Below are positions 52,189 through 64,000 of a stretch of 64,000 nt of DNA, one piece after another. Positions within the stretch are counted from its first letter, which is position 1, and each line of letters begins with the position of its first letter. Made by a program: the position numbers and the translations under genes. Source of the DNA: an uncultured Anaerolineae bacterium (GTDB lineage Bacteria > Chloroflexota > Anaerolineae > CG2-30-64-16); contig CAKZKT010000014.1 in NCBI GenBank assembly GCA_937124585.1, positions 7,393 to 71,392 of the forward strand, given 5' to 3'. The notes beneath the pieces are model-generated. The model made no database searches, was not told where the DNA came from, and saw only the letters and a list, made by a program, of their open reading frames with translations.

Positions 52189-54429
52189 ATGACAACGCGC
52201 GGCAAGGTCCTGGTCATTGATGATGAACTGGGCATTCGCGAGGGCTGCAAGCGGGCCCTGACCTCCCAGGGCTTCACGGTTGATGTGGCGCAGGACGGCC
52301 TTGACGGGCTGGCAAAGATCAAGGCCAACGGCTACGACGTGATTCTGCTGGACATCATGATGCCGGGGATCGGGGGCATCGAACTGCTGAGCCTGATCCG
52401 CGAGCACGACCCGGAGGCGGTCTGCATCATCATCACCGGTTACGGCACCGTGCAGGTGGCGGTGAACGCCATCAAACGCGGGGCCTATGACTTCCTTACC
52501 AAGCCGTTCACCGTGGACGACCTGCTGTTGGCGGTCAGCCATGGGCTGGAGCACCGGCGCCTGTTGTTGGAAGAGCAGCGGCTGAAGGCGCTAGAGGCCG
52601 AAACGCAGCAACTGGCTTACGAGAAACGCAAACTGGAGGAGGTGGAAAAAGCCAAGGCAACCTTCATCCGTCTGGTCACCCACGAGCTGCAAGCACCCAT
52701 CGCAGCCATCCAGGGCTATCTGCAGTTGATCCTGGACGGCTACGTTGAGCCCGAGAAACAACGGGAGGTGCTGGAAAAGGCGTCGGCGCGCGCCCAGGAG
52801 CAGATGGCGTTGATCGCCGACCTGCTGACCCTCAGCAAATTGCGCGATGCCCGCCAGCGCGAACAGGCTACCGAAGTGCGGCTGGACGAGCTGCTGCGCC
52901 AGGTGCTCGAGCCGTTTCAAGCGCAAGCCGTCGAAAAGGGCGTGTTGTTGCGCGCGAACATCGAGGGAGAAATCCCGGCCGTGCGTGGCATTGCCGGTGA
53001 GTTCAAGAGCCTCTTTGCGAACTTGATCAGCAACGCCATCAAATACACGCCGGCGGGCGGTTCCGTGGCAGTCAGCCTGCGCACGGATGACGGCAAGGTC
53101 ATCGGCTGCGTCAGCGACACCGGCATCGGCATCCCTCCCGAGGCGCGCGATCGCCTCTTCTCCGAATTCTTTCGAGCCGACAACGCCAAGGCCATGGCGT
53201 TGCGCGGCACGGGGCTGGGCCTGGTGATCGTCAAGCAGGCGGTGGAAAACGCCGGTGGACAGATTTGGGTCGAGTCAGAGCTTAACCGCGGGACAACTTT
53301 CACTTTTACCATACCGACAATGGCCGTCGCTGAAGAGCGACCAGAGCCCGTGAGTATTGAACCAAAGAAAGGAGGTCGGATGAGCCTAAGAATCATCGAA
53401 AAAAGCGCGCTGCCCGCGTTCGTTGCCGGCATCATGCGCGAGTACGAGGTGGTGGGGCCCCAGACCAAAGAGATATTGCCCAACGGCAAGAGCCAGTTCG
53501 TGTTCGGCCCCCTCACCAATCCCCATCAATTGCGGTTGGATTACGACACCACCGTTCTGCCGCCCAAGAAGTACCTTTTGCCCCAAGAAGAGGTGCTGTT
53601 CACCTTCGACACAGGAAGCCTCGCCGCCACGCCCCGCTTCGACACGCAGCCGCGTGTGCTGTTCGGCGTTCACACCTGCGATATCCACGCCTTGGCCCTG
53701 CTGGACGCCGTCTTTGCCACCGGCCAGCGCGATGAGCACTACCTCAAGCGGCGAGCCTCGACCCTGATCGTCGGCATCGAGTGCCTGGCGCCGTGCGATG
53801 AACACAGCTTCTGCAAGAGCATGGGCACCCTGACGGCGGATAAAGGATTCGACCTGCACCTCATTGACCTGGGGCAACGCTACGCCGTAGAGGTGGGCAC
53901 CGCGGCCGGCGAGGCGCTGCTGGCCAGACACGCGGCCGCGCGCATGGCCGATGAAAGTGACATCGAACTGCTGAACCGGGTGCTTTCGGAGAAATGGCCG
54001 CGCTTCCCCTATCGGCTCGATTTCGACGGCAGCGAATTGCCCAACCTGATGGCGCTGAGCTACAAAGACCCGCTCTGGGAGGAACTAGGTCAACGTTGTC
54101 TGTCATGCGCGGCGTGCAACCTGGTGTGCCCCACCTGCTATTGCTTCAACGTCGTTGACCAGGTGACGCTGGACCGGAAAAACGGCGAGCGGATACGGAA
54201 ATGGGATAGCTGTCAATTGGATGAATTCGCCCGCGTCGCCACCGGTGAAAACTTCCGACACAAGCGCTCACAACGCCAGCGTCACCGCTTCTTCCGCAAA
54301 GGCAAGTACATCCCGGAGATGCACGGCGAGCTGGGCTGTGTGGGCTGTGGCCGCTGTGCGCGCGCTTGCCTGGTAGACATCACCCCGGTCGGCGTCTGGA
54401 ACAAGTTGTACCAGGCGCACGCGAGCTAG
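52189..54429 (+). CDS. In-frame fusion: hybrid REC-HisKA-HATPase kinase plus sulfhydrogenase beta (HydB/AsrA-like) Fe-S subunit
   Basis: aa 1-~385 carry VLVIDDE, LLDIMMP, FLTKP, VTHELQAP, SNAIKY, DTGIG and GTGLGL. From aa 398 come PPKKYL, GVHTCD, CLSCAACNLVCPTCYC and CVGCGRCARAC. No stop codon lies between them. Confidence 0.88.
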   Translation: MTTRGKVLVIDDELGIREGCKRALTSQGFTVDVAQDGLDGLAKIKANGYDVILLDIMMPGIGGIELLSLIREHDPEAVCIIITGYGTVQVAVNAIKRGAYDFLTKPFTVDDLLLAVSHGLEHRRLLLEEQRLKALEAETQQLAYEKRKLEEVEKAKATFIRLVTHELQAPIAAIQGYLQLILDGYVEPEKQREVLEKASARAQEQMALIADLLTLSKLRDARQREQATEVRLDELLRQVLEPFQAQAVEKGVLLRANIEGEIPAVRGIAGEFKSLFANLISNAIKYTPAGGSVAVSLRTDDGKVIGCVSDTGIGIPPEARDRLFSEFFRADNAKAMALRGTGLGLVIVKQAVENAGGQIWVESELNRGTTFTFTIPTMAVAEERPEPVSIEPKKGGRMSLRIIEKSALPAFVAGIMREYEVVGPQTKEILPNGKSQFVFGPLTNPHQLRLDYDTTVLPPKKYLLPQEEVLFTFDTGSLAATPRFDTQPRVLFGVHTCDIHALALLDAVFATGQRDEHYLKRRASTLIVGIECLAPCDEHSFCKSMGTLTADKGFDLHLIDLGQRYAVEVGTAAGEALLARHAAARMADESDIELLNRVLSEKWPRFPYRLDFDGSELPNLMALSYKDPLWEELGQRCLSCAACNLVCPTCYCFNVVDQVTLDRKNGERIRKWDSCQLDEFARVATGENFRHKRSQRQRHRFFRKGKYIPEMHGELGCVGCGRCARACLVDITPVGVWNKLYQAHAS
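53380..54429 (+). CDS. hydB: Group 3b hydrogenase beta subunit translated from an internal start
   Basis: SD AAAGGAGG directly precedes the in-frame ATG at 53380 (MSLRIIEK). Confidence 0.65.
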   Translation: MSLRIIEKSALPAFVAGIMREYEVVGPQTKEILPNGKSQFVFGPLTNPHQLRLDYDTTVLPPKKYLLPQEEVLFTFDTGSLAATPRFDTQPRVLFGVHTCDIHALALLDAVFATGQRDEHYLKRRASTLIVGIECLAPCDEHSFCKSMGTLTADKGFDLHLIDLGQRYAVEVGTAAGEALLARHAAARMADESDIELLNRVLSEKWPRFPYRLDFDGSELPNLMALSYKDPLWEELGQRCLSCAACNLVCPTCYCFNVVDQVTLDRKNGERIRKWDSCQLDEFARVATGENFRHKRSQRQRHRFFRKGKYIPEMHGELGCVGCGRCARACLVDITPVGVWNKLYQAHAS

Positions 54430-54438
54430 GAGGCTGTT

Positions 54439-55275
54439 ATGGCAATACCGACAGTCGGTTCAATCTACGTTCCCAGCCCGGCGCGCATTGCCAAAGTGCA
54501 GCAGCTGACCGCGCTGGAGAAGCTGTTTACCATTGAGCTGCCCTGGGGCCAAAGCCTGGGACATGAGCCGGGCCAATTCGTCGAGGTGAGCATCTTCGGC
54601 GTCGGTGAGGCGCCCATCTCCATCAGTTCGTCCCCCAGCCGAAGCAACGGCACCTTCGAGCTTTGCGTGCGCAAGGTGGGCGACGTCACCGCGGCCATGC
54701 ACAAGCTGGAGGTCGGCGCCAGCATCGGCGTGCGCGGCCCGTTCGGCCACGGCTTCCAAATCGAGAAGATGCGCGGCAAAGATATCCTGTTCGCACCCGG
54801 CGGCCTGGGGCTGGCGCCTGCGCGCAGTTTGATCAACCAGGTCTTGGACGAGCGCGGCTCCTTCGGCCGCGTCATCATCCTGTACGGCGCCAAGAACCCC
54901 TCTGAACTGCTGTTCAAGGACGAATTGGAGGCATGGAGCAAGCGGCCGGATGTGGAGTTCCATGTGACCGTGGATCGGCCCGACTCGACCTGGAACGGCA
55001 ACGTCGGGGTGATCACTACCCTGTTCAAGAAGATCCATGTAAACCCGCGCAACACCGTGGCGGTAACCGTTGGCCCGCCCATCATGTACCGCTTCGTGTT
55101 GATGGAACTGCTGGGCAAGGGCATCCCGGAGACCCAGATCTGGATGTCCCTGGAACGGCGGATGAAATGCGGTGTCGGGAAATGCGGTCACTGTCAGATC
55201 AACAACCTGTACTGCTGCCAGCAAGGCCCGGCCTTCACTTACGCCCAGATCAAAGGCGTCGAGGAGGCGATTTGA
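54439..55275 (+). CDS. hydG: Group 3b hydrogenase gamma subunit (FAD/NAD(P), 2Fe-2S)
   Basis: PGQFVEV, GEAPISISS, RGPFG, GGLGLAP, LERRMKCGVGKCGHC, CCQQGP. Confidence 0.9.
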   Translation: MAIPTVGSIYVPSPARIAKVQQLTALEKLFTIELPWGQSLGHEPGQFVEVSIFGVGEAPISISSSPSRSNGTFELCVRKVGDVTAAMHKLEVGASIGVRGPFGHGFQIEKMRGKDILFAPGGLGLAPARSLINQVLDERGSFGRVIILYGAKNPSELLFKDELEAWSKRPDVEFHVTVDRPDSTWNGNVGVITTLFKKIHVNPRNTVAVTVGPPIMYRFVLMELLGKGIPETQIWMSLERRMKCGVGKCGHCQINNLYCCQQGPAFTYAQIKGVEEAI

Positions 55276-56021
55276 TGAAACCCAAAGTGGCTTTCTTCGA
55301 CTTCACCAGTTGCGAAGGCTGCCAGCTCACGGTGGTGGACAGCCTGCAAACGCATACCGAGCTCCTCGATGCGGTCGAGATCGTACAATTTCGTGAGGCG
55401 ATGACCGAAAAGGGCGAGGACTACGCGGTGGCCTTTGTGGAGGGCTCCATCAGCCGGCCCAGTGACGAGCCGCGGCTGAAGCGCATTCGCGAGCAAGCCG
55501 CGGTGCTGGTCGCCCTGGGTGCCTGCGCGCACCTGGGCGGCATCAACGCGATCCGCAACGCCATGCCGCTGGACGACGTGCGCCGCTACGTGTACGGCGA
55601 CAAGGCCGACTGGTACGAAACCTACCCGGCCCGGCCGATCAGCGCCGTCGTGCCGGTAGACGCCGTGATCCCTGGCTGCCCCATTGACCGCAACGAATTC
55701 CTGGAGGTGGTCAAGGCGCTGTTGTTGGGCAAAAAGCCGCCGCTGCCCGATTATCCCCTGTGTGTGGAATGCAAGCTCAAGGAACACACCTGTCTGTTTC
55801 ATAAGGGCGGCTATTGCCTGGGGCCGGTAACGCGCGCGGGCTGCGGCGCCATTTGTCCCACCTATGGCGACGGTTGCGAAGGCTGCCGAGGCCTGATCCC
55901 TGACCCGAACCGCAACGCCATGAGCGAGGTCTTGTTGGAACACGGCCTGACCGTAGATGCGATGCTGGCGCGCTGGACGATGTTTGGGACGTATCAGCAG
56001 ATGGAAACGGGGAAAAAATAG
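55275..56021 (+). CDS. hydD: Group 3b [NiFe]-hydrogenase small (delta) subunit
   Basis: FTSCEGCQ, VEGS, ALGACA, IPGCP, LCVEC, CLGPVTRAGC...CP...CEGCRG. Confidence 0.92.
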   Translation: MKPKVAFFDFTSCEGCQLTVVDSLQTHTELLDAVEIVQFREAMTEKGEDYAVAFVEGSISRPSDEPRLKRIREQAAVLVALGACAHLGGINAIRNAMPLDDVRRYVYGDKADWYETYPARPISAVVPVDAVIPGCPIDRNEFLEVVKALLLGKKPPLPDYPLCVECKLKEHTCLFHKGGYCLGPVTRAGCGAICPTYGDGCEGCRGLIPDPNRNAMSEVLLEHGLTVDAMLARWTMFGTYQQMETGKK

Positions 56022-56122
56022 AAGCTGGAAGTGAGCAGGCAGAAAGCCCAAGATGATGGTTTCTGGTTGGCCGTCAGTCGTCGGGCACCGGTCGCCCGCT
56101 TCCGGCCACCGGCTTCCGGTTA
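56022..56122. repeat. Degenerate heptamer-periodic intergenic stretch
   Basis: aagctgg aagtgag caggcag aaagccc ... ccggtcg cccgctt ccggcca ccggctt ccggtta. Confidence 0.45.
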
Positions 56123-56137
56123 AGGAGAGGATGATTT

Positions 56138-57427
56138 ATGGCAAATGTCAACATAGAAGTTCATCACGTCACCCGTGTCGAGGGGCATGGGAACATCGTG
56201 GTCAATGCCAAAAACGGCGTGCTGGAGGAATGCCGGCTGGAGATCGTGGAGACCCCGCGCTTCTTCGAAGCGATGTTGCGCGGCCGGCCATACACGCAGT
56301 CCAGCCATATCACCAGCCGGATCTGCGGCATCTGCGCCGTGGGCCATGCCACGGCCAGCCTGCGCGCCACCGAGAACGCGCTGGGCATCGAGCCGTCGGA
56401 GCAGACGGTGTTGCTCCGCAAGCTGAACTTCCACGGCGAGATCATTGACAGCCATGTGCTGCACGTGTACATGCTGGTCGCGCCCGACATGTTCGGCGTT
56501 GGCTCAGTGATCCCCCTGGTGAAGACGGCGCCCGATGTGGTATTGCGCGCGCTGCGCATCAAGAAGCTTTCCGGCGACCTGTGCGCAACCATCGGCGGCC
56601 GCCACACCCATCCGATCGCCATGGCCGTGGGCGGCTTTACCCATTACCCCACCGTGGCCGAGCTGAAGGCGCTGCGCCAGCGGCTGGTGGACGCCCGGGC
56701 CGACATGGACGAGACGGTCAAGCTGGCGAAAACGCTGCCCTGGCCGCAGTTCAACCGCGAGACCGAATACGTGGCGCTGCGCAAAGAGGACGAGTACGCT
56801 TTCATTGACGGCACCATCACCACGACCGACGGCGGAAAGTATCCAGTGAAGGACTACCGCAAAGTCACCAACGAACGCATGGTGCCGCACTCCACCGCCA
56901 AGTACACCGCGCACAAGCGTGAATCGTACATGGTGGGCGCGCTGGCGCGCTTCAACGTCAATTACGACAAGCTGCACCCGCGCGCTCAGGCCGCGGCCGA
57001 GGAACTGGGCCTGAAGCCGATCTGCACCAACCCATACCTGAACACGGCGGCCCAGGTGGTGGAGATGGTGCACAGCGTCGAAGATTCCATCCGCATCATT
57101 GACGAGCTGTTGGTGCGGGGCATCCATCCGGAACCGCTGCCGCCGTTCCCCGGCCGGGGCGGCGAGGGGGTCGGCTCCTGCGAGGTGCCGCGCGGGATCC
57201 TCTTCCACAACTATCAGATCGGCGAGAACGGCTTGGTAAAGAACGCCAACTGCATCATCCCCACAGGGCAAAACCTGGCGAACATCGAAGCGGACATGCG
57301 CAAACTGGTGCCGGAGATCCTCGATCGGCCCCAGGACGAAATCCGACTGATGCTGGAGATGCTGGTGCGCGCGTACGACCCGTGCATCTCGTGCTCGGTG
57401 CACTTTCTGGAGGTGAAGTTTGTTTGA
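56138..57427 (+). CDS. hydA: Group 3b [NiFe]-hydrogenase large (alpha) subunit
   Basis: TRVEGHG, L1 SRICGICAVGH, EVPRG, L2 YDPCISCSVH, followed by a 7-aa cleavable tail. Confidence 0.95.
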   Translation: MANVNIEVHHVTRVEGHGNIVVNAKNGVLEECRLEIVETPRFFEAMLRGRPYTQSSHITSRICGICAVGHATASLRATENALGIEPSEQTVLLRKLNFHGEIIDSHVLHVYMLVAPDMFGVGSVIPLVKTAPDVVLRALRIKKLSGDLCATIGGRHTHPIAMAVGGFTHYPTVAELKALRQRLVDARADMDETVKLAKTLPWPQFNRETEYVALRKEDEYAFIDGTITTTDGGKYPVKDYRKVTNERMVPHSTAKYTAHKRESYMVGALARFNVNYDKLHPRAQAAAEELGLKPICTNPYLNTAAQVVEMVHSVEDSIRIIDELLVRGIHPEPLPPFPGRGGEGVGSCEVPRGILFHNYQIGENGLVKNANCIIPTGQNLANIEADMRKLVPEILDRPQDEIRLMLEMLVRAYDPCISCSVHFLEVKFV

Positions 57428-58397
57428 CGACGGACGAAAGACGAAGGACGAAGGACGAAAGACGGACGAAACCGTTGATCATTCGTCATTCGTCATTCGT
57501 CCGGTCTTGGTCCTGGGCCTCGGCAACCCGCTGCAAGGGGATGATGGCGTCGGTTGCCGGGCCATCGAGGCGTTGCAGCAGTACACGCTGCCGGAGACGG
57601 TCGAAACCCTGGACGGCGGCACCCCCGGCATCGGGTTGTTGCACCTGCTGGAGGGGCGGCGGCGTGCCATTCTGGTGGACGCGGCCGAGATGGGCCAGCC
57701 GGCCGGCACCATCGTCCGGTTTCGAGCCGCAGACGTAACCCTGGCCGGCGCCGCAGAACGCCTCTCGCTCCACCGGACAGCGGTAGCCGATGCGCTGGCG
57801 CTGGCAGAGGCGCTGACGCTGTCGCTGCCGGACATCGTGTTTTTCGGGGTGCAGCCGGAACGTGTCGGCTGGGGCCAGGACCTGAGCCCCAAAGTCGCGG
57901 CCGCCGTACCACAGGTGGTACAGGCGATCTTGCATGAGATCTCTCACGATCCAAAGGAAGGGATACACATGCCCACGAAAAAAGAGGCTCCTGAAACCAA
58001 AGGCCTGATCTTGATCGTTGACGACGATCCAGACATGGTAGAAGCTTTGCGCATGCCGCTCGAGGCCCACCGCTACTCCGTAGCCCATGCTGCCAGCGGT
58101 CGTCTGGCCCTGAAGATGATCCCGGAGCTGCGACCCGACCTCATCATCCTGGACGTGATGATGGAAACGACCACCGAAGGTTTCCAGGTGTCCCTCGCGC
58201 TGCGCAGCCCCGACCCGCGCTCCGAATACGCGGCCTACAAAGACATCCCCATCCTAATGCTGACCTCGATCCACTCGACCACGCCGTTGCGCTTCGGGCC
58301 GGATCAGGACTACCTGCCGGTGGACGAGTTCATAGACAAGCCGGTGGACCCAGACAAGTTGGTTGCCAAAATCAACGCATTACTGGCCCGCAAGTAG
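57420..58397 (+). CDS. In-frame fusion: hydrogenase maturation protease plus receiver domain
   Basis: GLGNPLQGDDGVG, LDGGT, ILVDA, SLH, then from the ATG at 57969 (SD AAGGAAGG) LILIVDDD, IILDVMME, MLTS, FIDKP. No stop codon lies between them. Confidence 0.85.
   Translation: MFDDGRKTKDEGRKTDETVDHSSFVIRPVLVLGLGNPLQGDDGVGCRAIEALQQYTLPETVETLDGGTPGIGLLHLLEGRRRAILVDAAEMGQPAGTIVRFRAADVTLAGAAERLSLHRTAVADALALAEALTLSLPDIVFFGVQPERVGWGQDLSPKVAAAVPQVVQAILHEISHDPKEGIHMPTKKEAPETKGLILIVDDDPDMVEALRMPLEAHRYSVAHAASGRLALKMIPELRPDLIILDVMMETTTEGFQVSLALRSPDPRSEYAAYKDIPILMLTSIHSTTPLRFGPDQDYLPVDEFIDKPVDPDKLVAKINALLARK
57424..57501. repeat. Heptamer tandem/inverted repeat inside the protease 5' end
   Basis: GACGAA(A/G) repeated about five times, then TTCGTC(A) three times; the arms are complementary. 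Confidence 0.85.
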
Positions 58398-58412: not shown

Positions 58413-58447
58413 CAGATGCCAGGCGCAGCCTGAACGCCTGGCATCTG
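58413..58447 (+). terminator. Hairpin closing the hydrogenase unit, related to the REP family
   Basis: CAGATGCCAGGCG-cagcctgaa-CGCCTGGCATCTG. Confidence 0.65.
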
Positions 58448-58568
58448 ATTAACCGGGACTATGACAGGCATCATTGCCGGGCCGACCGCTTTATGCTTTA
58501 AGAACGCTGAGCTTTCTATTCGACTCGCCAGCTATCTGGCTTTGCCAGCCATATTGAGGCGTTGAAGC

Positions 58569-59039
58569 ATGCTTGATATGACAACAAACTTCGACCTGGC
58601 GCCGTTGCATGCGATCCTGGAAGAGTATGGCAGTCAAAAAGGCACCGTCATCCCCATCCTGCAGCGGGTGCAGGACGCGTACGGTTACCTGCCGAAGGAA
58701 ATCCTGGCCGAAATATCGAAGCGGACCAACATCCCCCTCACCCAGCTCATGGGAGTAGCGACCTTCTACACCCAGTTCCGCTTGAGCCCGCGGGGTAAGC
58801 ATCTTATTCGGGTATGCGACGGAACGGCTTGTCATGTAAGTGGAGCGCCCCACATTGTAAGGGCTATCGAAAAGGAATACGATATGCCGGCCGGATCTTC
58901 CTCGCCTGATCTTAAGTATACGCTCGAGGTTGTATATTGCGTGGGCGCATGTGGACTGGCTCCGGTCGTCATCGTGGATGACAAGGTGTATGGGAGGCTC
59001 TCTCCCGATGCTGTCCTGGAAAAAGTGCGTGATGTCTGA
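58569..59039 (+). CDS. NuoE/HydC-like 2Fe-2S subunit
   Basis: IPILQRVQDAYGYLP, ATFYTQF, VCDGTACH, CVGACGLAP. Confidence 0.92.
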   Translation: MLDMTTNFDLAPLHAILEEYGSQKGTVIPILQRVQDAYGYLPKEILAEISKRTNIPLTQLMGVATFYTQFRLSPRGKHLIRVCDGTACHVSGAPHIVRAIEKEYDMPAGSSSPDLKYTLEVVYCVGACGLAPVVIVDDKVYGRLSPDAVLEKVRDV

Positions 59040-59065
59040 TAAGGCAACCCGGCAGGAGGCGCGAG

Positions 59066-60979
59066 ATGTCCTTATTGAAATCCACTGATGATCTGCTGAG
59101 CCTGCGCGAGAGGGCAATATACGCTTTAGGGGTCCGTGTGCCGGGCGCGTCCCAACCTCAGTTTCGCAACGACGTAGTCGTTTGTGGCAGCACAGGCTGT
59201 CGGTCGGCCAATTCCCAGCAGGTTCTGAAAGCGCTACAGGCTCAGATCATCCAGAGGGAGTTGGACAAGGCTGTACGCGTGATTTCTACTGGTTGCCGCG
59301 GTTTATGTGCCGTGGGACCGGTGATGCAGATTTTCCCCTCCGGTGTGTTCTACAACCGCGTCCAGATTACGGACGTGCCAGAAATTGTCGAACAGACGCT
59401 GGTCGGGGGCAAGATCATCGAAAGGCTTTGTTTCCGTGATGTGGCGCAGAACAAAAGGCTCGCGCATTATCTGGACATTCCGTTTTATAACCGACAACTG
59501 CCCATTGTCCTACGCAACTGCGGCTTGATTGATCCGCAAAACATAGAGGAATACATCGCCACTGATGGCTACTTGGGATTGACTAAAGCATTAGAGCTAT
59601 CACCCGAGGAGGTCATCGAGATCATCAAAAATTCAGGCTTGCGTGGGCGTGGCGGAGCCGGCTTTTCCACAGGCATTAAATGGGAGCTTTGTCGGCGGGT
59701 CGCAAAACAACCGAAGTACGTGATTTGCAACGCGGATGAAGGTGATCCTGGCGCGTTCATGGACCGTTCCATCCTGGAAGCTGACCCGCACAGCGTGATC
59801 GAAGGGATGGTAATTGCAGCCTATGCGATTGGAGCGCCGCTAGGATACATCTATGTACGTGCTGAATACCCGTTGGCTGTGATTCACCTCCGAAGAGCTA
59901 TCGCCCAAGCGCGGGCGTACGGCCTACTGGGCGAAAATATCCTGGGCAGCGGCTTCTCCTTTGACCTGCACCTGAAGGAGGGGGCGGGCGCGTTCGTGTG
60001 CGGCGAGGAGATGGCACTCATCGCCTCCGTCGAAGGCCGCCGCGGAGAGCCGCGGCCCAAACCACCCTTCCCGGCCGTCTCCGGCCTCTGGAACCGGCCA
60101 ACGGTCGTCAACAACGTCAAAACCTACGCCCTGACGCCCCGGATCATCCTGAGGGGGCCAGAGTGGTTCTCGAGCATCGGCACGTCCAAATCGCCGGGCA
60201 CCGCCGTGTTCGCCTTGACCGGAAAGATCAGAAACACCGGCCTGATCGAAGTGCCCATGGGCATCACCCTGCGCGAGATCATCTACGACATTGGCGGCGG
60301 CATCCCCAAGAAGCGCCAGTTCAAGGCCGTCCAAACCGGCGGCCCGTTGGGCGGATGCCTGCCCGCCTCGGCGCTAGACACGCCGGTGGATTTCGATTCC
60401 CTCACCGAAGCCGGCGCCACCATGGGCTCGGGGGGCATGATCGTGGTTGACGAGCGCACCTGTATGGTTGAATTCGCCAAATACTTCCTGACCTTCGCTA
60501 CTGCCGAATCGTGTGGCAAGTGCGTGCCGTGCCGCATCGGCGGCCAGCGACTGCTGGAAGTGCTCACCCGCATCACCTCAGGCGCAGGCACCCCGCGCGA
60601 TTTGGACGAGATTGAACGCATCTCCCGCAACATGCGCGAGGCGTCGCTCTGTGCGCTGGGCCAGCTGACACCCGGCCCGGTCATGTCGGCGCTGCGCTTC
60701 TTCCGTGAGGAGTACGAGGCGCATGTCTACGACAAATTCTGTCTGGCCGGCGTCTGCAAAGGGCTCTATGAGCTGCACGTGGACGCCGACAGATGCGCGG
60801 GATGCGGCTTGTGCAAGAAGGCCTGTTCACAAGACGCGATCAGCGGCAACCGCAAGGAACCGCATGTCATTGACCAGCTCAAATGCATCCAGTGCGGCGC
60901 TTGTGTCGAGGCGTGCAACCTGGATGCCATCGTAGCTCAGCCGCGAGGAAAAGGCGTACATGCCATTGCGGTGGCTTAG
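59066..60979 (+). CDS. NuoF/HydB(BfuB)-like FMN/NADH subunit with extra Fe-S domains
   Basis: N-terminal CGSTGC...GCRGLC, GLRGRGGAGF, NADEGDPGAFMDR, FVCGEE, GGPLGG, ESCGKCVPCR, SLCALG, H-x5-C-x4-C, and a C-terminal 2x[4Fe-4S]. Confidence 0.93.
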   Translation: MSLLKSTDDLLSLRERAIYALGVRVPGASQPQFRNDVVVCGSTGCRSANSQQVLKALQAQIIQRELDKAVRVISTGCRGLCAVGPVMQIFPSGVFYNRVQITDVPEIVEQTLVGGKIIERLCFRDVAQNKRLAHYLDIPFYNRQLPIVLRNCGLIDPQNIEEYIATDGYLGLTKALELSPEEVIEIIKNSGLRGRGGAGFSTGIKWELCRRVAKQPKYVICNADEGDPGAFMDRSILEADPHSVIEGMVIAAYAIGAPLGYIYVRAEYPLAVIHLRRAIAQARAYGLLGENILGSGFSFDLHLKEGAGAFVCGEEMALIASVEGRRGEPRPKPPFPAVSGLWNRPTVVNNVKTYALTPRIILRGPEWFSSIGTSKSPGTAVFALTGKIRNTGLIEVPMGITLREIIYDIGGGIPKKRQFKAVQTGGPLGGCLPASALDTPVDFDSLTEAGATMGSGGMIVVDERTCMVEFAKYFLTFATAESCGKCVPCRIGGQRLLEVLTRITSGAGTPRDLDEIERISRNMREASLCALGQLTPGPVMSALRFFREEYEAHVYDKFCLAGVCKGLYELHVDADRCAGCGLCKKACSQDAISGNRKEPHVIDQLKCIQCGACVEACNLDAIVAQPRGKGVHAIAVA

Positions 60980-60993
60980 GAGAGCCGATAGAT

Positions 60994-63837
60994 ATGCCCC
61001 AAGTAAACATCACGATTGACGGCAAGAAGATCAAGGCCGAAGCCTTCAAGACCGTGTACGAGGTGGCGACGGCCAACGGCATCTACATCCCGGCCCTCTG
61101 TCATCACCCGGCCCTGCCGCCGGAAGGCGCCTGCCGCGTCTGCCTGGTGGAGATCGAACGCCAACGCGCGCTTCAACCGGCATGTACCTTCCCGGTGACC
61201 GAAGGGCTGGTCATTCACACCAACTCGCCCAAGGTGCGCGAAGCACGCAAATTCGCGCTGGAGCTGATCATCTCTGACCACCCCCTGGATTGCATGACCT
61301 GTGAGGCCACCGGCGATTGTCGGCTGCAAGACCTGGCCTACGAGTACGGCGTGAAGGGCAACGAATACACGGGCGGCGTGCAGCACACCTACCCGATTGA
61401 CGACCCCAACCCCTTCATCCAGGTGGACCGCAATAAATGCATCCTCTGTCGGCGCTGCGTGCGAGCGTGCAACTACATCAACGGCGTCGAGGCCATCGGC
61501 ATCGTCTATCGCGGCTTCAAAGCGCGCATCGCCTTCGGCATGGACTCCACCATGCAAGACAGCCCGTGCGAATTCTGCGGCAGCTGCGTCGAGGTCTGCC
61601 CCACGGCCGCGCTGTGGCCCAAGATGAGCCTGGGCAAGGGCCGCGCCTGGCAGCTCAAAAAGATCGAAACGATCTGCTCCTACTGCGGCGTCGGCTGTCG
61701 GCTGAACCTCCACGTGCGCGATAACGAGATCGTCAAAGTGACCGGCGCCGATGGCCCCGCCAACCACGGCTTCACCTGCGTCAAAGGCCGTTTCGGCTAC
61801 GACTATGTCAACCATCCGGAGCGACTGACCAGGCCGCTGGTGCGACGCTATCTGCTGGAGGGGGGGAGCAAAGCGGCGACGGATCACCGTGGCGGCGGTG
61901 ATGGAAAAAATGGAGACGGACTGCTGGCGACGGGCAATGCCGCCGCCGATTTCGTCGAGACCGATTGGGATACGGCGCTCAACCTGGTCGCCCACAAGTT
62001 CGCCGAGATCAAGCGGAACTATGGCGGCGACGCGTTTGCCGCGCTGTGCTCGGCGCGCTGCACCAACGAAGAAAACTTCCTGATGGCCAAGCTGACGCGG
62101 CAGCTGATGGCAACGCACAACATAGACCACTGCGCGCGTCTCTGACACAGCGCCACCGTCACCGGTCTGGTGACATCGTTCGGCTCCGGCGCCATGACCA
62201 ACCCGTTCGATGACATTGCCAAAAACGCGCAATGTCTCTTCATCATCGGCTCGAACACCACCGAGCAGCATCCGGTGTTCGGAATGCAGCTTCGCCAGGC
62301 GGTCAAGCAGCGCGGGGTGCCGCTCATCCTGGCCGATCCGCGGCGCATTCCGATCGCGGACTATGCGACGATCCACCTGCGCCACAAGCCCGGCACCGAC
62401 ACGGCCCTGCTCAACGGCCTGATGTACGTGCTGATCACCGAAGACCTGTACGACCACGAGTTCGTGGCCAATCGCACCGAAGGCTTCGAAGAACTGAAGG
62501 CGAAGATCCTCGCATATCCGCCGGAGCGCGTAGCCGAGATCTGCGACGTAAATGCCGAGGATATCCGTCGGGCCGCACGGCTCATGGCCGCGCACAGACC
62601 CGGCGCGCTGATGTATGCGATGGGCATCACCCAGCACACCAGCGGCCACGGCAACGTCATCTCCTGCGCCAACTTGCAGATGCTTCTGGGCAACGTCGGC
62701 GTGGCCGGCGGCGGCGTCAATCCGTTGCGCGGCCAGTCGAACGTGCAGGGTTCGTGCGATATGGGCGGCCTGCCGAACTACTACAGCGGCTATCAGAACG
62801 TCGCCCTGGAAGCCAGCCACAAAAAATTCGAGGCGGCCTGGGGCGCGGTGCCGCCGGTGGACAAACCCGGCCTGACCCTGGTCGAGATGATGCGCGCGGC
62901 CGAGCACGGCCAGATCAAGGCCATGTACATCCTCGGCGAGAACCCCGCCCTGTCCGACCCCGACAGCAATCACGTGCGCCGCTGCCTGGCCGCGCTCGAC
63001 TTCCTCGTGGTCCAGGACCTCTTCCTGACCGAAACCGCCCAACTGGCCGATGTCGTGCTGCCGGGCGCGTCGTTCGCGGAGAAAGATGGCACGTTCACCA
63101 ACAGCGAGCGCCGCGTGCAACGCGTGCAGCGCGCGCTCAACCCGATCGGCGAGTGTCGGCCCGACTGGGAGATCATCTCCGACCTGGGACAGCGCCTGCT
63201 GACAGCCATTTGGCCAGAGCTGCCGGACGCGATCGCCGAGGCACCGCATGGCCATTGGGATTACATGAACCCGGTTGAAATCCTGGACGAGATCGCCGAC
63301 CTGACGCCGTCGTACGCCGGCATTCGGGCGCATCGGCTGGAGAAGCTGGGCAGCTTGCAATGGCCCTGTCCCGATGAGAAACACCCCGGCACGCCGATCC
63401 TGCACGTCGGCAAGTTCACGCGCGGCCTGGGCAAGTTCCAGCCGATGGGCTATCTGCCGCCGGCCGAACTGCCAGATGAATCCTATCCGCTGCTGCTGAC
63501 GACCGGCCGCGTGCTGTATCACTACCATACCGGCTCGCTGACCCGCCGGGCACGGGGACTGGCTGCCATCTATCCGGAAGGACTGATCGAGCTGCATCCC
63601 GAAGACGCGGCGCGACTCGGCGTGGCGAACGGGGAAACGGTCGAGGTCGCCAGTCGGCGCGGCCGCGTTCACGCCAAGGCCGATGTCACCGAGCGCGTGC
63701 AGCCCGGCGTCGTCTTCATGACGTTCCACTTCCCCGACAGCGCAGCCAATTTCCTGACCAATCCGGCGCTCGACCCGGTGGCTAAGATACCCGAGTTCAA
63801 AGCGTGCGCGGTGCGAGTGAGCAAATGCGCAGTATGA
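60994..63837 (+). CDS. fdhF: Selenocysteine-containing Mo/W formate dehydrogenase alpha with an N-terminal NuoG/HydA-like Fe-S module; one CDS of about 947 aa
   Basis: IPALCH, CRVCLVE, HPLDCMTC, CILCRRC, CEFCGSC, CSYCGVGC, CVKG. In-frame TGA at 62143 sits in DHCARL-U-H. Downstream are GSNTTEQHP, LRGQSNVQG and TTGR; the two ORF-track pieces are in the same frame. Confidence 0.92.
62143..62177 (+). promoter_or_regulatory. Sec UGA codon and bacterial SECIS
   Basis: TGA, 12 nt spacer, then stem GTCACC/GGTGAC with loop GGTCT; same position and loop as the E. coli fdhF SECIS. Confidence 0.85.
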
Positions 63838-63922: not shown

Positions 63923-64000
63923 ATGCGCTTAGGCAGAGTACTGGAAATCATCGAAGGCAAGCTCATCTCCGAAGACGCCGACCTGGACACGGAAGTGCAG
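63923..64000 (+). CDS. DRTGG-domain-type protein, 3'-truncated by the window edge
   Basis: SD AGGAGG; MRLGRVLEIIEGKLISEDADLDTEV resembles DRTGG protein N-termini. Only 26 aa are visible. Confidence 0.5.
   Translation, partial: MRLGRVLEIIEGKLISEDADLDTEVQ

Follow-up and report, generated by a model that had tools for sequence, protein, structure and literature searches.

A Predicted Electron-Bifurcating Selenocysteine Formate Dehydrogenase of the Single-Chain Type in an Uncultured Anaerolineae Bacterium

Introduction

When the genes of a formate dehydrogenase follow those of a hydrogenase, which electron acceptors does the enzyme serve, and is the hydrogenase its partner? This question is raised by three adjacent genes, bfuC, bfuB, and fdhA (positions 58569-63837), in a stretch of 64,000 nucleotides (nt) from an uncultured Anaerolineae bacterium of the Chloroflexota (GenBank assembly GCA_937124585.1, contig CAKZKT010000014.1, positions 7,393 to 71,392; hereafter the window, in whose coordinates, always on the plus strand, the features below are given). 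An earlier note, made by a model from the sequence, had read the trio as a bifurcating enzyme that connects formate/CO2 with NADH and ferredoxin and that forms, with the neighboring group 3b [NiFe] hydrogenase, a formate/H2 unit typical of syntrophs. Here, we report that the trio probably encodes a soluble heterotrimeric formate dehydrogenase of the class named Type 1 Fdh-Bfu, in which the electrons of formate would be split between NADH and ferredoxin, likely at the service of the CO2/formate step of the Wood-Ljungdahl pathway. We give this reading a probability of roughly 0.7.

The Bfu family has an invariant BfuBC core with flavin mononucleotide (FMN) and six clusters, and its characterized non-bifurcating homologues lack the sites B2 to B5 (Schut et al. 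2022, PMC9304861). In a Type 1 Fdh-Bfu, for example that of Carboxydothermus hydrogenoformans, the BfuA subunit itself bears the pterin site beside cluster A5. The same authors counted 82 Fdh-type members and stated that, of the non-hydrogenase Type 1 enzymes, only Nfn-Bfu had been characterized (PMC9304861). Li et al. (2025, PMC11829005) describe B2 as a Zn site and B1-FMN-C1 as the smallest unit capable of bifurcation, with B3/B4 passing low-potential electrons to ferredoxin; deletion of B3/B4 abolishes bifurcation in the HydABC of T. kivui. “FdhA-HydBC” complexes have also been annotated as putatively bifurcating in the metagenomic literature (bioRxiv 10.1101/2021.07.06.451242; PMC5736913).

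Cofactor Motifs of the Three Subunits

BfuB (59066-60979; 637 aa) is a HydB/NuoF-like protein that was analyzed with Pfam, a motif scan, and a sequence search of the PDB. Its Pfam domains are a partial 2Fe-2S_thioredx (PF01257) at residues 30-110, Complex1_51K, SLBB, NADH_4Fe-4S, and a C-terminal dicluster ferredoxin domain; PF01512 scored 154 bits, PF10589 scored 104 bits, and Fer4 families match the tail. The motif scan placed the thioredoxin-like [2Fe-2S] site B5 at C40-x4-C45...C77-x3-C81 (59183-59308), where the cysteines align with the same cysteines in the PDB chains 7t2r_B and 7q4v_B. The FMN/NAD motifs are GLRGRGGAGF at residues 191-200 and ADEGDPGAFMDR at 223-234 (the “AFM” motif of the earlier note), and are followed by PPFP at 333-336 and TCMV at 465-468. 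Between Cys466 and Cys564 (60458-60757; motif scan and HydB alignments), the B2 site, composed of Cys466 of TCMV plus H553-x5-C559-x4-C564, encloses the [4Fe-4S] ligands of B1 (C483-x2-C486-x2-C489...C529). All of the B2 residues align with the same residues in 7t2r_B, 7q4v_B, and 8a6t_B. The ferredoxin-like tail (60794-60916) carries B3/B4 as two C-x2-C-x2-C-x3-C motifs, CAGCGLCKKAC at residues 577-587 and CIQCGACVEAC at 607-617.

The partner BfuC (58569-59039; 156 aa) is NuoE/HydC-like, consists of a 2Fe-2S_thioredx domain (PF01257, 161 bits), and has C83, C88, C124, and C128 as the motif-scan ligands of the [2Fe-2S] cluster C1. FdhA (60994-63837; 947 aa including Sec384, where Sec is selenocysteine; Pfam, motif scan, and PDB alignments) contains in a single chain the Pfam domains Fer2_4, NADH-G_4Fe-4S_3, Fer4_Nqo3, Molybdop_Fe4S4, Molybdopterin, and Molydop_binding. 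In other words, a BfuA/NuoG-like Fe-S module is fused to a catalytic domain of the Mo/W-bis-pyranopterin guanine dinucleotide type. Five Fe-S motifs were found in this chain, namely A1 ([2Fe-2S]), the His-ligated A2 (HPLDCMTCEATGDC), A3/A4 as two CxxCxxCxxxC motifs, and the pterin-proximal A5, together with the motifs DHCARL-U-HS and RGQSNVQG. A Gly/Asp/Ala-rich insertion (LLEGGSKAATDHRGGGDGKNGDGLLATGNAAADF) at about residues 285-322 (61840-61960) breaks the PDB alignments of the catalytic domain in two.

The three genes are closely spaced, with 26 nt between bfuC and bfuB and 14 nt between bfuB and fdhA. The list of open reading frames (ORFs) splits fdhA at its in-frame TGA and starts it at 60883. 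We place the true start at 60994 because the 37 extra residues overlap the end of bfuB and because the homologues align from residue 1-6 of the chain that begins at 60994.

Comparison with Known Enzymes

BfuB, BfuC, and FdhA were compared with all PDB sequences by bit score and coverage. BfuB was matched best by the B subunits of bifurcating hydrogenases: NiFe-HydB of Acetomicrobium mobile (7t2r_B, 807 bits), HydB of A. woodii (7q4v_B, 791 bits), and HydB of T. kivui (8a6t_B, 727 bits), followed by Nfn/Stn B subunits (8oh5_B, 9bov_B, and 9n5u_B, 680-692 bits) and HydB of T. maritima (7p5h_B, 660 bits). The non-bifurcating FdsB chains of C. necator (6vw7_B) and R. capsulatus (6tg9_B) reached 431 and 379 bits, and several NuoF chains of complex I about 384 bits. 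Coverage separates the two groups as well: the matches of at least 660 bits span BfuB from about residue 33-41 to about 622, whereas those to FdsB run from 54 or 128 to 550 and those to NuoF end at about 550-566. When the last 101 residues of BfuB were searched alone, the only PDB matches at homologous positions were the tails of Bfu-type B subunits (HydB/NfnB, 70-109 bits); no FdsB or NuoF chain was found, and the other matches were generic ferredoxin domains of unrelated proteins. BfuC gave the same picture, with 124-158 bits to HydC/NfnC of bifurcating complexes versus 83-99 bits to FdsG. For FdhA, the best matches are FdsA-type alpha subunits (about 750 bits), and residues 1-285 align with residues 1-287 of HydA, subunit A of the NiFe-HydABCSL structure 7T2R.

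Against this background, the trio can be set beside four known systems. It resembles the Type 1 Fdh-Bfu in having three subunits, in the presence of FMN, B1-B5, and C1 sites in BfuB/BfuC, and in the fusion of the pterin domain to the BfuA module near A5. It differs in that the clade-49 Fdh enzymes of PMC9304861 are from Firmicutes, whereas the present locus belongs to a large Chloroflexota clade, is rich in signaling genes, and lies beside a 3b hydrogenase; the C. hydrogenoformans enzyme is likened to it by description only. Gottschalkia (Clostridium) acidurici HylABC-FdhF2, a Type 3 Fdh-Bfu, likewise places a Sec formate dehydrogenase on a HydB/HydC-type core and is a characterized bifurcating enzyme, in which formate oxidation depends on both NAD+ and ferredoxin (Wang et al. 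2013, cited in PMC9304861 and PMC5736913). In that enzyme, HylA and FdhF2 are separate proteins, whereas here they correspond to one chain (60994-63837). NiFe-HydABCSL (7T2R/7T30) and the HydABC enzymes of A. woodii, T. kivui, and T. maritima supply the best BfuB/BfuC matches and share the cluster motifs, but their third substrate is H2, at a NiFe or FeFe site, instead of formate at a Sec-Mo/W-pterin site. Finally, FdsGBA(D) of R. capsulatus and C. necator (6TG9, 6VW7) has the same alpha architecture (a NuoG-like module plus a pterin domain) and NuoE/NuoF-type partners, but neither the B2 site nor the B3/B4 tail is present in FdsB, whereas the beta subunit here has all of the extra sites.

These comparisons support well the assignment of the trio to Type 1 Fdh-Bfu: every sequence feature of the class is present. 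Thus, the NuoF-like features that the earlier note had listed (an N-terminal 2Fe-2S domain, the Cys of TCMV with H-x5-C-x4-C, a double [4Fe-4S] tail, AFM, and PPFP) were all located by the motif scan, the HydA/NuoG-like module that it placed in the formate dehydrogenase chain is visible in the domains of the 947-aa ORF, and its statement that such features are absent from simple FdsGBA agrees with FdsB alignments that stop at residue 550 and with a tail that has no FdsB match. The enzyme class it proposed is therefore upheld by the B and C motifs, the PDB scores, and the fused FdhA, while bifurcation itself stays a prediction from these features. Earlier literature had already predicted and named the class, of which the locus is a clear but unremarkable case.

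Selenocysteine and Its Machinery

The in-frame TGA of fdhA (62143-62145) lies in a candidate Sec insertion sequence (SECIS) region with a hairpin and a GGUCU loop (62140-62198). The Rfam model SECIS_3 matches at 62140-62198 with 36.4 bits (E 3.8e-5), which is under its gathering score of 63. The hairpin is present in the predicted fold, although in energy the region does not stand out from shuffled sequence (z = 0.33). Among 33 related fdhA genes, 28 have TGA at the Sec position and five have TGT (Cys), and the surrounding DHCARL-x-HS is otherwise invariant. Because the fold energy alone is not distinctive, our SECIS call is based on the Rfam model and this comparative TGA/TGT evidence. Fds enzymes have a Cys ligand and an FdsD subunit; in FdhA, the ligand is Sec.

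The genome encodes tRNA-Sec, SelA, SelB, and FdhD, as well as two selD genes (contigs C137:32079-33008 and C89:3094-4026). Each selD gene has one in-frame TGA, and selenophosphate synthetase is thus probably a selenoprotein here, present in two copies.

Distribution among the Chloroflexota

Relatives were collected in a scan of one genome per species, which gave 301 BfuB relatives; the best 80 loci were analyzed with 10-kb flanks and are numbered with the prefix L. The gene order BfuC-BfuB-FdhA, with a catalytic domain in FdhA, occurs in at least 33 species-level loci, nearly all of them in metagenome-assembled genomes of Chloroflexota. A FastTree phylogeny of 106 BfuB-like proteins, comprising uncharacterized loci and the genome's own paralogues and made with no topology test, groups the window with L004, L005, L009, and L037 (support 100) inside an almost wholly Chloroflexota clade of 45 sequences (support 99), of which 26 are Fdh-linked. 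NuoF, a NuoE-F fusion, and HoxF of the same genome fall outside this clade. The locus is a further sign that the Chloroflexota commonly carry Type 1 Fdh-Bfu enzymes, which PMC9304861 lists mainly from Firmicutes.

Several of the related loci (L010, L016, L018, L024, L035, and others) carry, immediately downstream of fdhA, another pair of NuoE/NuoF-like genes (about 47% identity). Motif scans for B2, B3/B4, and B5 were negative in this pair, which branches near NuoF and is followed by homologues of the Cache kinase and the REC-kinase (REC, receiver domain).

Alternative BfuB Tails and a Possible Exchange of the bfuCB Cassette

Many relatives have a BfuB of about 1095 aa, with a GltD-like module of the NADPH type (Fer4_20 plus Pyr_redox_2) in place of the B3/B4 tail. 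Such long BfuB proteins occur in L034 (9956-13243), L013, L020, L023, L029-L033, L036, L047-L049, and L053; GltD-tailed BfuB proteins are absent from the main text of PMC9304861. In L034, a rubrerythrin gene and an ORF of 121 aa lie between bfuC and the long bfuB.

The two forms are distributed differently over the trees of the two large subunits. In the FdhA tree (FastTree, no topology test), the 10-sequence clade of the window (support 100) consists of five partners of standard BfuB and five partners of long BfuB, with L004 (standard) and L034 (long) as sisters (support 99), whereas in the BfuB tree standard and long BfuB form separate clades. Nevertheless, the hydrogenase and fdhA genes that flank bfuCB in L034 are as close to those of the window as are those of L004. 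Moreover, from bfuC to the 5' part of bfuB (58440-59945), the GC content of the window is 0.51-0.57 versus 0.61-0.65 elsewhere, the nucleotide similarity to L005, L009, and L037, three of the five closest loci, is lost, and insertions in relatives, such as the rubrerythrin gene, fall in the same stretch. Because the FdhA and BfuB trees disagree while the flanks are alike, and because low GC content coincides with loss of similarity, these sequence comparisons suggest that close relatives have exchanged bfuCB as a cassette at a conserved locus.

Genome Context and the Proposed Reaction

The source assembly is 99.8% complete, and its gene content bears on the role of the enzyme. It encodes formyl-tetrahydrofolate synthetase (FTHFS), acetyl-CoA synthase (ACS), and six POR_N matches (homologues of pyruvate:ferredoxin oxidoreductase). 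No other formate dehydrogenase is recognizable in the genome; the only other FdhA-like matches lack the Cys/Sec-His motif. One of them, encoded on contig C111 and 30% identical to FdhA, was rejected as a second formate dehydrogenase since it looks NuoG-like and has no Cys/Sec-His active-site motif, and the other, on contig C116, is a molybdoenzyme with a Tat signal. Since FTHFS and ACS are present and the enzyme is the sole recognizable formate dehydrogenase, a role at the CO2/formate step of the Wood-Ljungdahl pathway is indicated. Judged by gene content, such a role is more likely than a syntrophic formate/H2 unit coupled to the 3b hydrogenase.

Two further sets of NiFe hydrogenase genes were found, and no [FeFe] hydrogenase was found in the assembly. 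On contig C71 (L085:2237-9866, minus strand) is a predicted bifurcating NiFe-HydABCSL, with a BfuB of 628 aa that has B1, B2, B3/B4, and a degenerate B5, together with BfuC, a separate thioredoxin-like protein of 125 aa, a BfuA of 597 aa, and small and large NiFe subunits. On contig C155 (L086:1725-7187, minus strand), a HoxEFUYH-type NAD-linked NiFe hydrogenase is encoded with its protease; its HoxF keeps the N-terminal [2Fe-2S] and the Cys/His-x5-C-x4-C site and has no ferredoxin tail.

By analogy with the characterized members of the family, the electrons of formate would run through the cluster chain of FdhA to the B1-FMN-C1 “flavobicluster”, where electron pairs would be split. The high-potential share would reduce NAD+ at FMN, and the low-potential share would pass through C1 to B3/B4 and reduce ferredoxin. 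The overall reaction would be 2 formate + NAD+ + 2 Fd(ox) -> 2 CO2 + NADH + 2 Fd(red), and would be reversible. In the Wood-Ljungdahl pathway, the enzyme could work at the CO2/formate step in either direction, with the NADH and ferredoxin pools drawn on or fed jointly. H2 would most plausibly be exchanged through the NiFe-Bfu hydrogenase of contig C71, which would use both cofactors, whereas the 3b hydrogenase would handle NAD(P)H only.

The Neighboring Hydrogenase and Its Signaling Genes

Upstream of the trio, positions 52189-58397 hold the genes of a group 3b [NiFe] hydrogenase in the same orientation: a beta subunit fused to a REC-histidine kinase, gamma, delta, and alpha subunits, and a protease fused to REC. 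The large subunit is matched best by the 3b enzymes of T. kodakarensis and P. furiosus (240-247 bits), the beta subunit is AsrA-like, and the gamma subunit is of the FAD/NAD type. In the 171-nt gap between the stop codon of the protease-REC gene (58397) and bfuC is a hairpin with a 13-bp stem (58413-58447; -35.2 kcal/mol, z = -6.3 versus shuffled sequences). It has no U-tract and may be a partial terminator or an element of RNA stability. A consensus scan for a sigma-70-like promoter or a U-tract terminator found neither.

Downstream of fdhA, a DRTGG-domain gene (PF07085) starts at 63923 and continues beyond the end of the window (63923-64000), and two receiver-only genes follow it on the contig. 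In relatives, the DRTGG gene stands after a formate/nitrite transporter gene or is fused to it. In L004 (14872-15990), a transporter fused to the DRTGG domain follows fdhA, and in L005, L009, and L034 there is space or an ORF for a transporter after fdhA. In the window, from 63839 onwards (L003:1232-1708), the DRTGG part alone comes directly after fdhA. A DRTGG paralogue (71% identical) lies on contig C146 (L087:2546-3453), directly after another hydrogenase maturation protease gene.

This arrangement invites a broader and, in our judgment, doubtful proposal. The Fdh-Bfu might be the partner of a 3b hydrogenase that is wired by a phosphorelay, in which the Cache kinase, the kinase-fused beta subunit, the receiver-only proteins, and DRTGG would act as a post-translational valve between formate and H2 as outlets; bfuCB, whose ferredoxin-type form gives way to an NADPH-type cassette in sister genomes, would then pick the cofactor pools to be drained.

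Weighing the Explanations

Several points weigh against a bifurcating enzyme of the Wood-Ljungdahl pathway. The literature searched contains no purification or assay of a single-chain Type 1 Fdh-Bfu, and bifurcation is extrapolated from the hydrogenases and Nfn enzymes of the family and from the multi-subunit enzymes of G. acidurici and C. autoethanogenum. Our BfuB tree includes no characterized proteins, and the placement beside bifurcating enzymes rests on PDB bit scores. Neither NAD versus NADP specificity nor Mo versus W can be read from sequence. Moreover, the Wood-Ljungdahl assessment is based on marker genes only, and neither Rnf nor a formate/nitrite transporter (FNT) was found in the 99.8%-complete assembly. 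The lack of any biochemical test of a Type 1 Fdh-Bfu in that literature leaves some room for a plain NAD(P)H-linked formate dehydrogenase, in which the extra BfuB clusters would be structural or an electron reservoir and would not couple to ferredoxin. Of 26 BfuB relatives that have the standard length and are associated with Fdh, 13, among them the close L005, L009, and L037, gave no match to the B5 Cys motif, from which it follows that not all of the extra sites are essential, and the NfnB of Csac carries Zn at B5 (PMC11829005). On the contrary, the characterized enzymes with B2-B4 all bifurcate, and the characterized non-bifurcating homologues lack B2-B4 (PMC9304861, PMC11829005); furthermore, the tail of BfuB matches HydB tails almost colinearly over 85 residues and is conserved in the clade of the window. 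We therefore regard a plain formate dehydrogenase as unlikely. T. onnurineus Fdh3 (PMC8965080), a possible non-bifurcating counter-example, was set aside, since its NAD(P) subunit resembles NfnB rather than BfuB.

If the enzyme does bifurcate, its partners may still be others than those proposed here. It could work chiefly with the adjacent 3b hydrogenase as a soluble syntrophic formate/H2 unit, possibly as one regulated module, as the earlier note supposed. The neighbor is indeed a group 3b enzyme with adjacent, co-oriented genes, the full order Cache kinase-hydrogenase-bfuCB-fdhA-DRTGG is kept in five relatives (L004, L005, L009, L034, and L037), and L016 and L040 also have 3b-like genes upstream. 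Some NiFe hydrogenase occurs within 10 kb of 14 of the 33 Fdh-Bfu loci, yet it is 3b-like in only seven of them and of another NiFe type in the other seven. Within 10 kb, no hydrogenase was found in 13 of the 33 loci, all with full flanks, and the upstream sequence of the remaining six is too short to judge. Cache kinase and REC-kinase homologues occur in 14 of the 33 loci, so their association with the formate dehydrogenase is at least as close as that of the hydrogenase. In addition, the hairpin and the 171-nt gap separate the two gene sets, the 3b enzyme would re-oxidize only NAD(P)H and leave reduced ferredoxin unbalanced, and the genome has a cofactor-matched NiFe-Bfu elsewhere, Wood-Ljungdahl markers, and a sole formate dehydrogenase. 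Thus, the identity of the neighbor was confirmed, whereas the coupling ascribed to it is improbable, somewhat more so than a plain formate dehydrogenase. Least probable of these alternatives, with only a slim chance, is a bifurcating enzyme specific for NADP, like the Hyt/Fdh complex of C. autoethanogenum, which would convert formate to NADPH and reduced ferredoxin and thereby match the 3b hydrogenase. An NADP-specific Bfu-type complex does exist (PMC9304861), and the exchange of the ferredoxin tail for the NADPH-type GltD module at the same locus in close relatives implies that NADP(H) coupling is used in this lineage. Nevertheless, ADEGDPGAFMDR and GAGAFVCGEE of BfuB are identical or nearly identical to the corresponding motifs in the NAD-dependent HydB proteins of A. 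mobile, A. woodii, and T. kivui. Our preferred reading remains that of an NAD- and ferredoxin-linked Fdh-Bfu.

Conclusions

If this reading is right, an Anaerolineae bacterium would reduce CO2 or oxidize formate while balancing its NADH and ferredoxin pools in one step. Such coupling would save energy in Wood-Ljungdahl metabolism, in fermentation, and in the interspecies transfer of formate in anoxic habitats.

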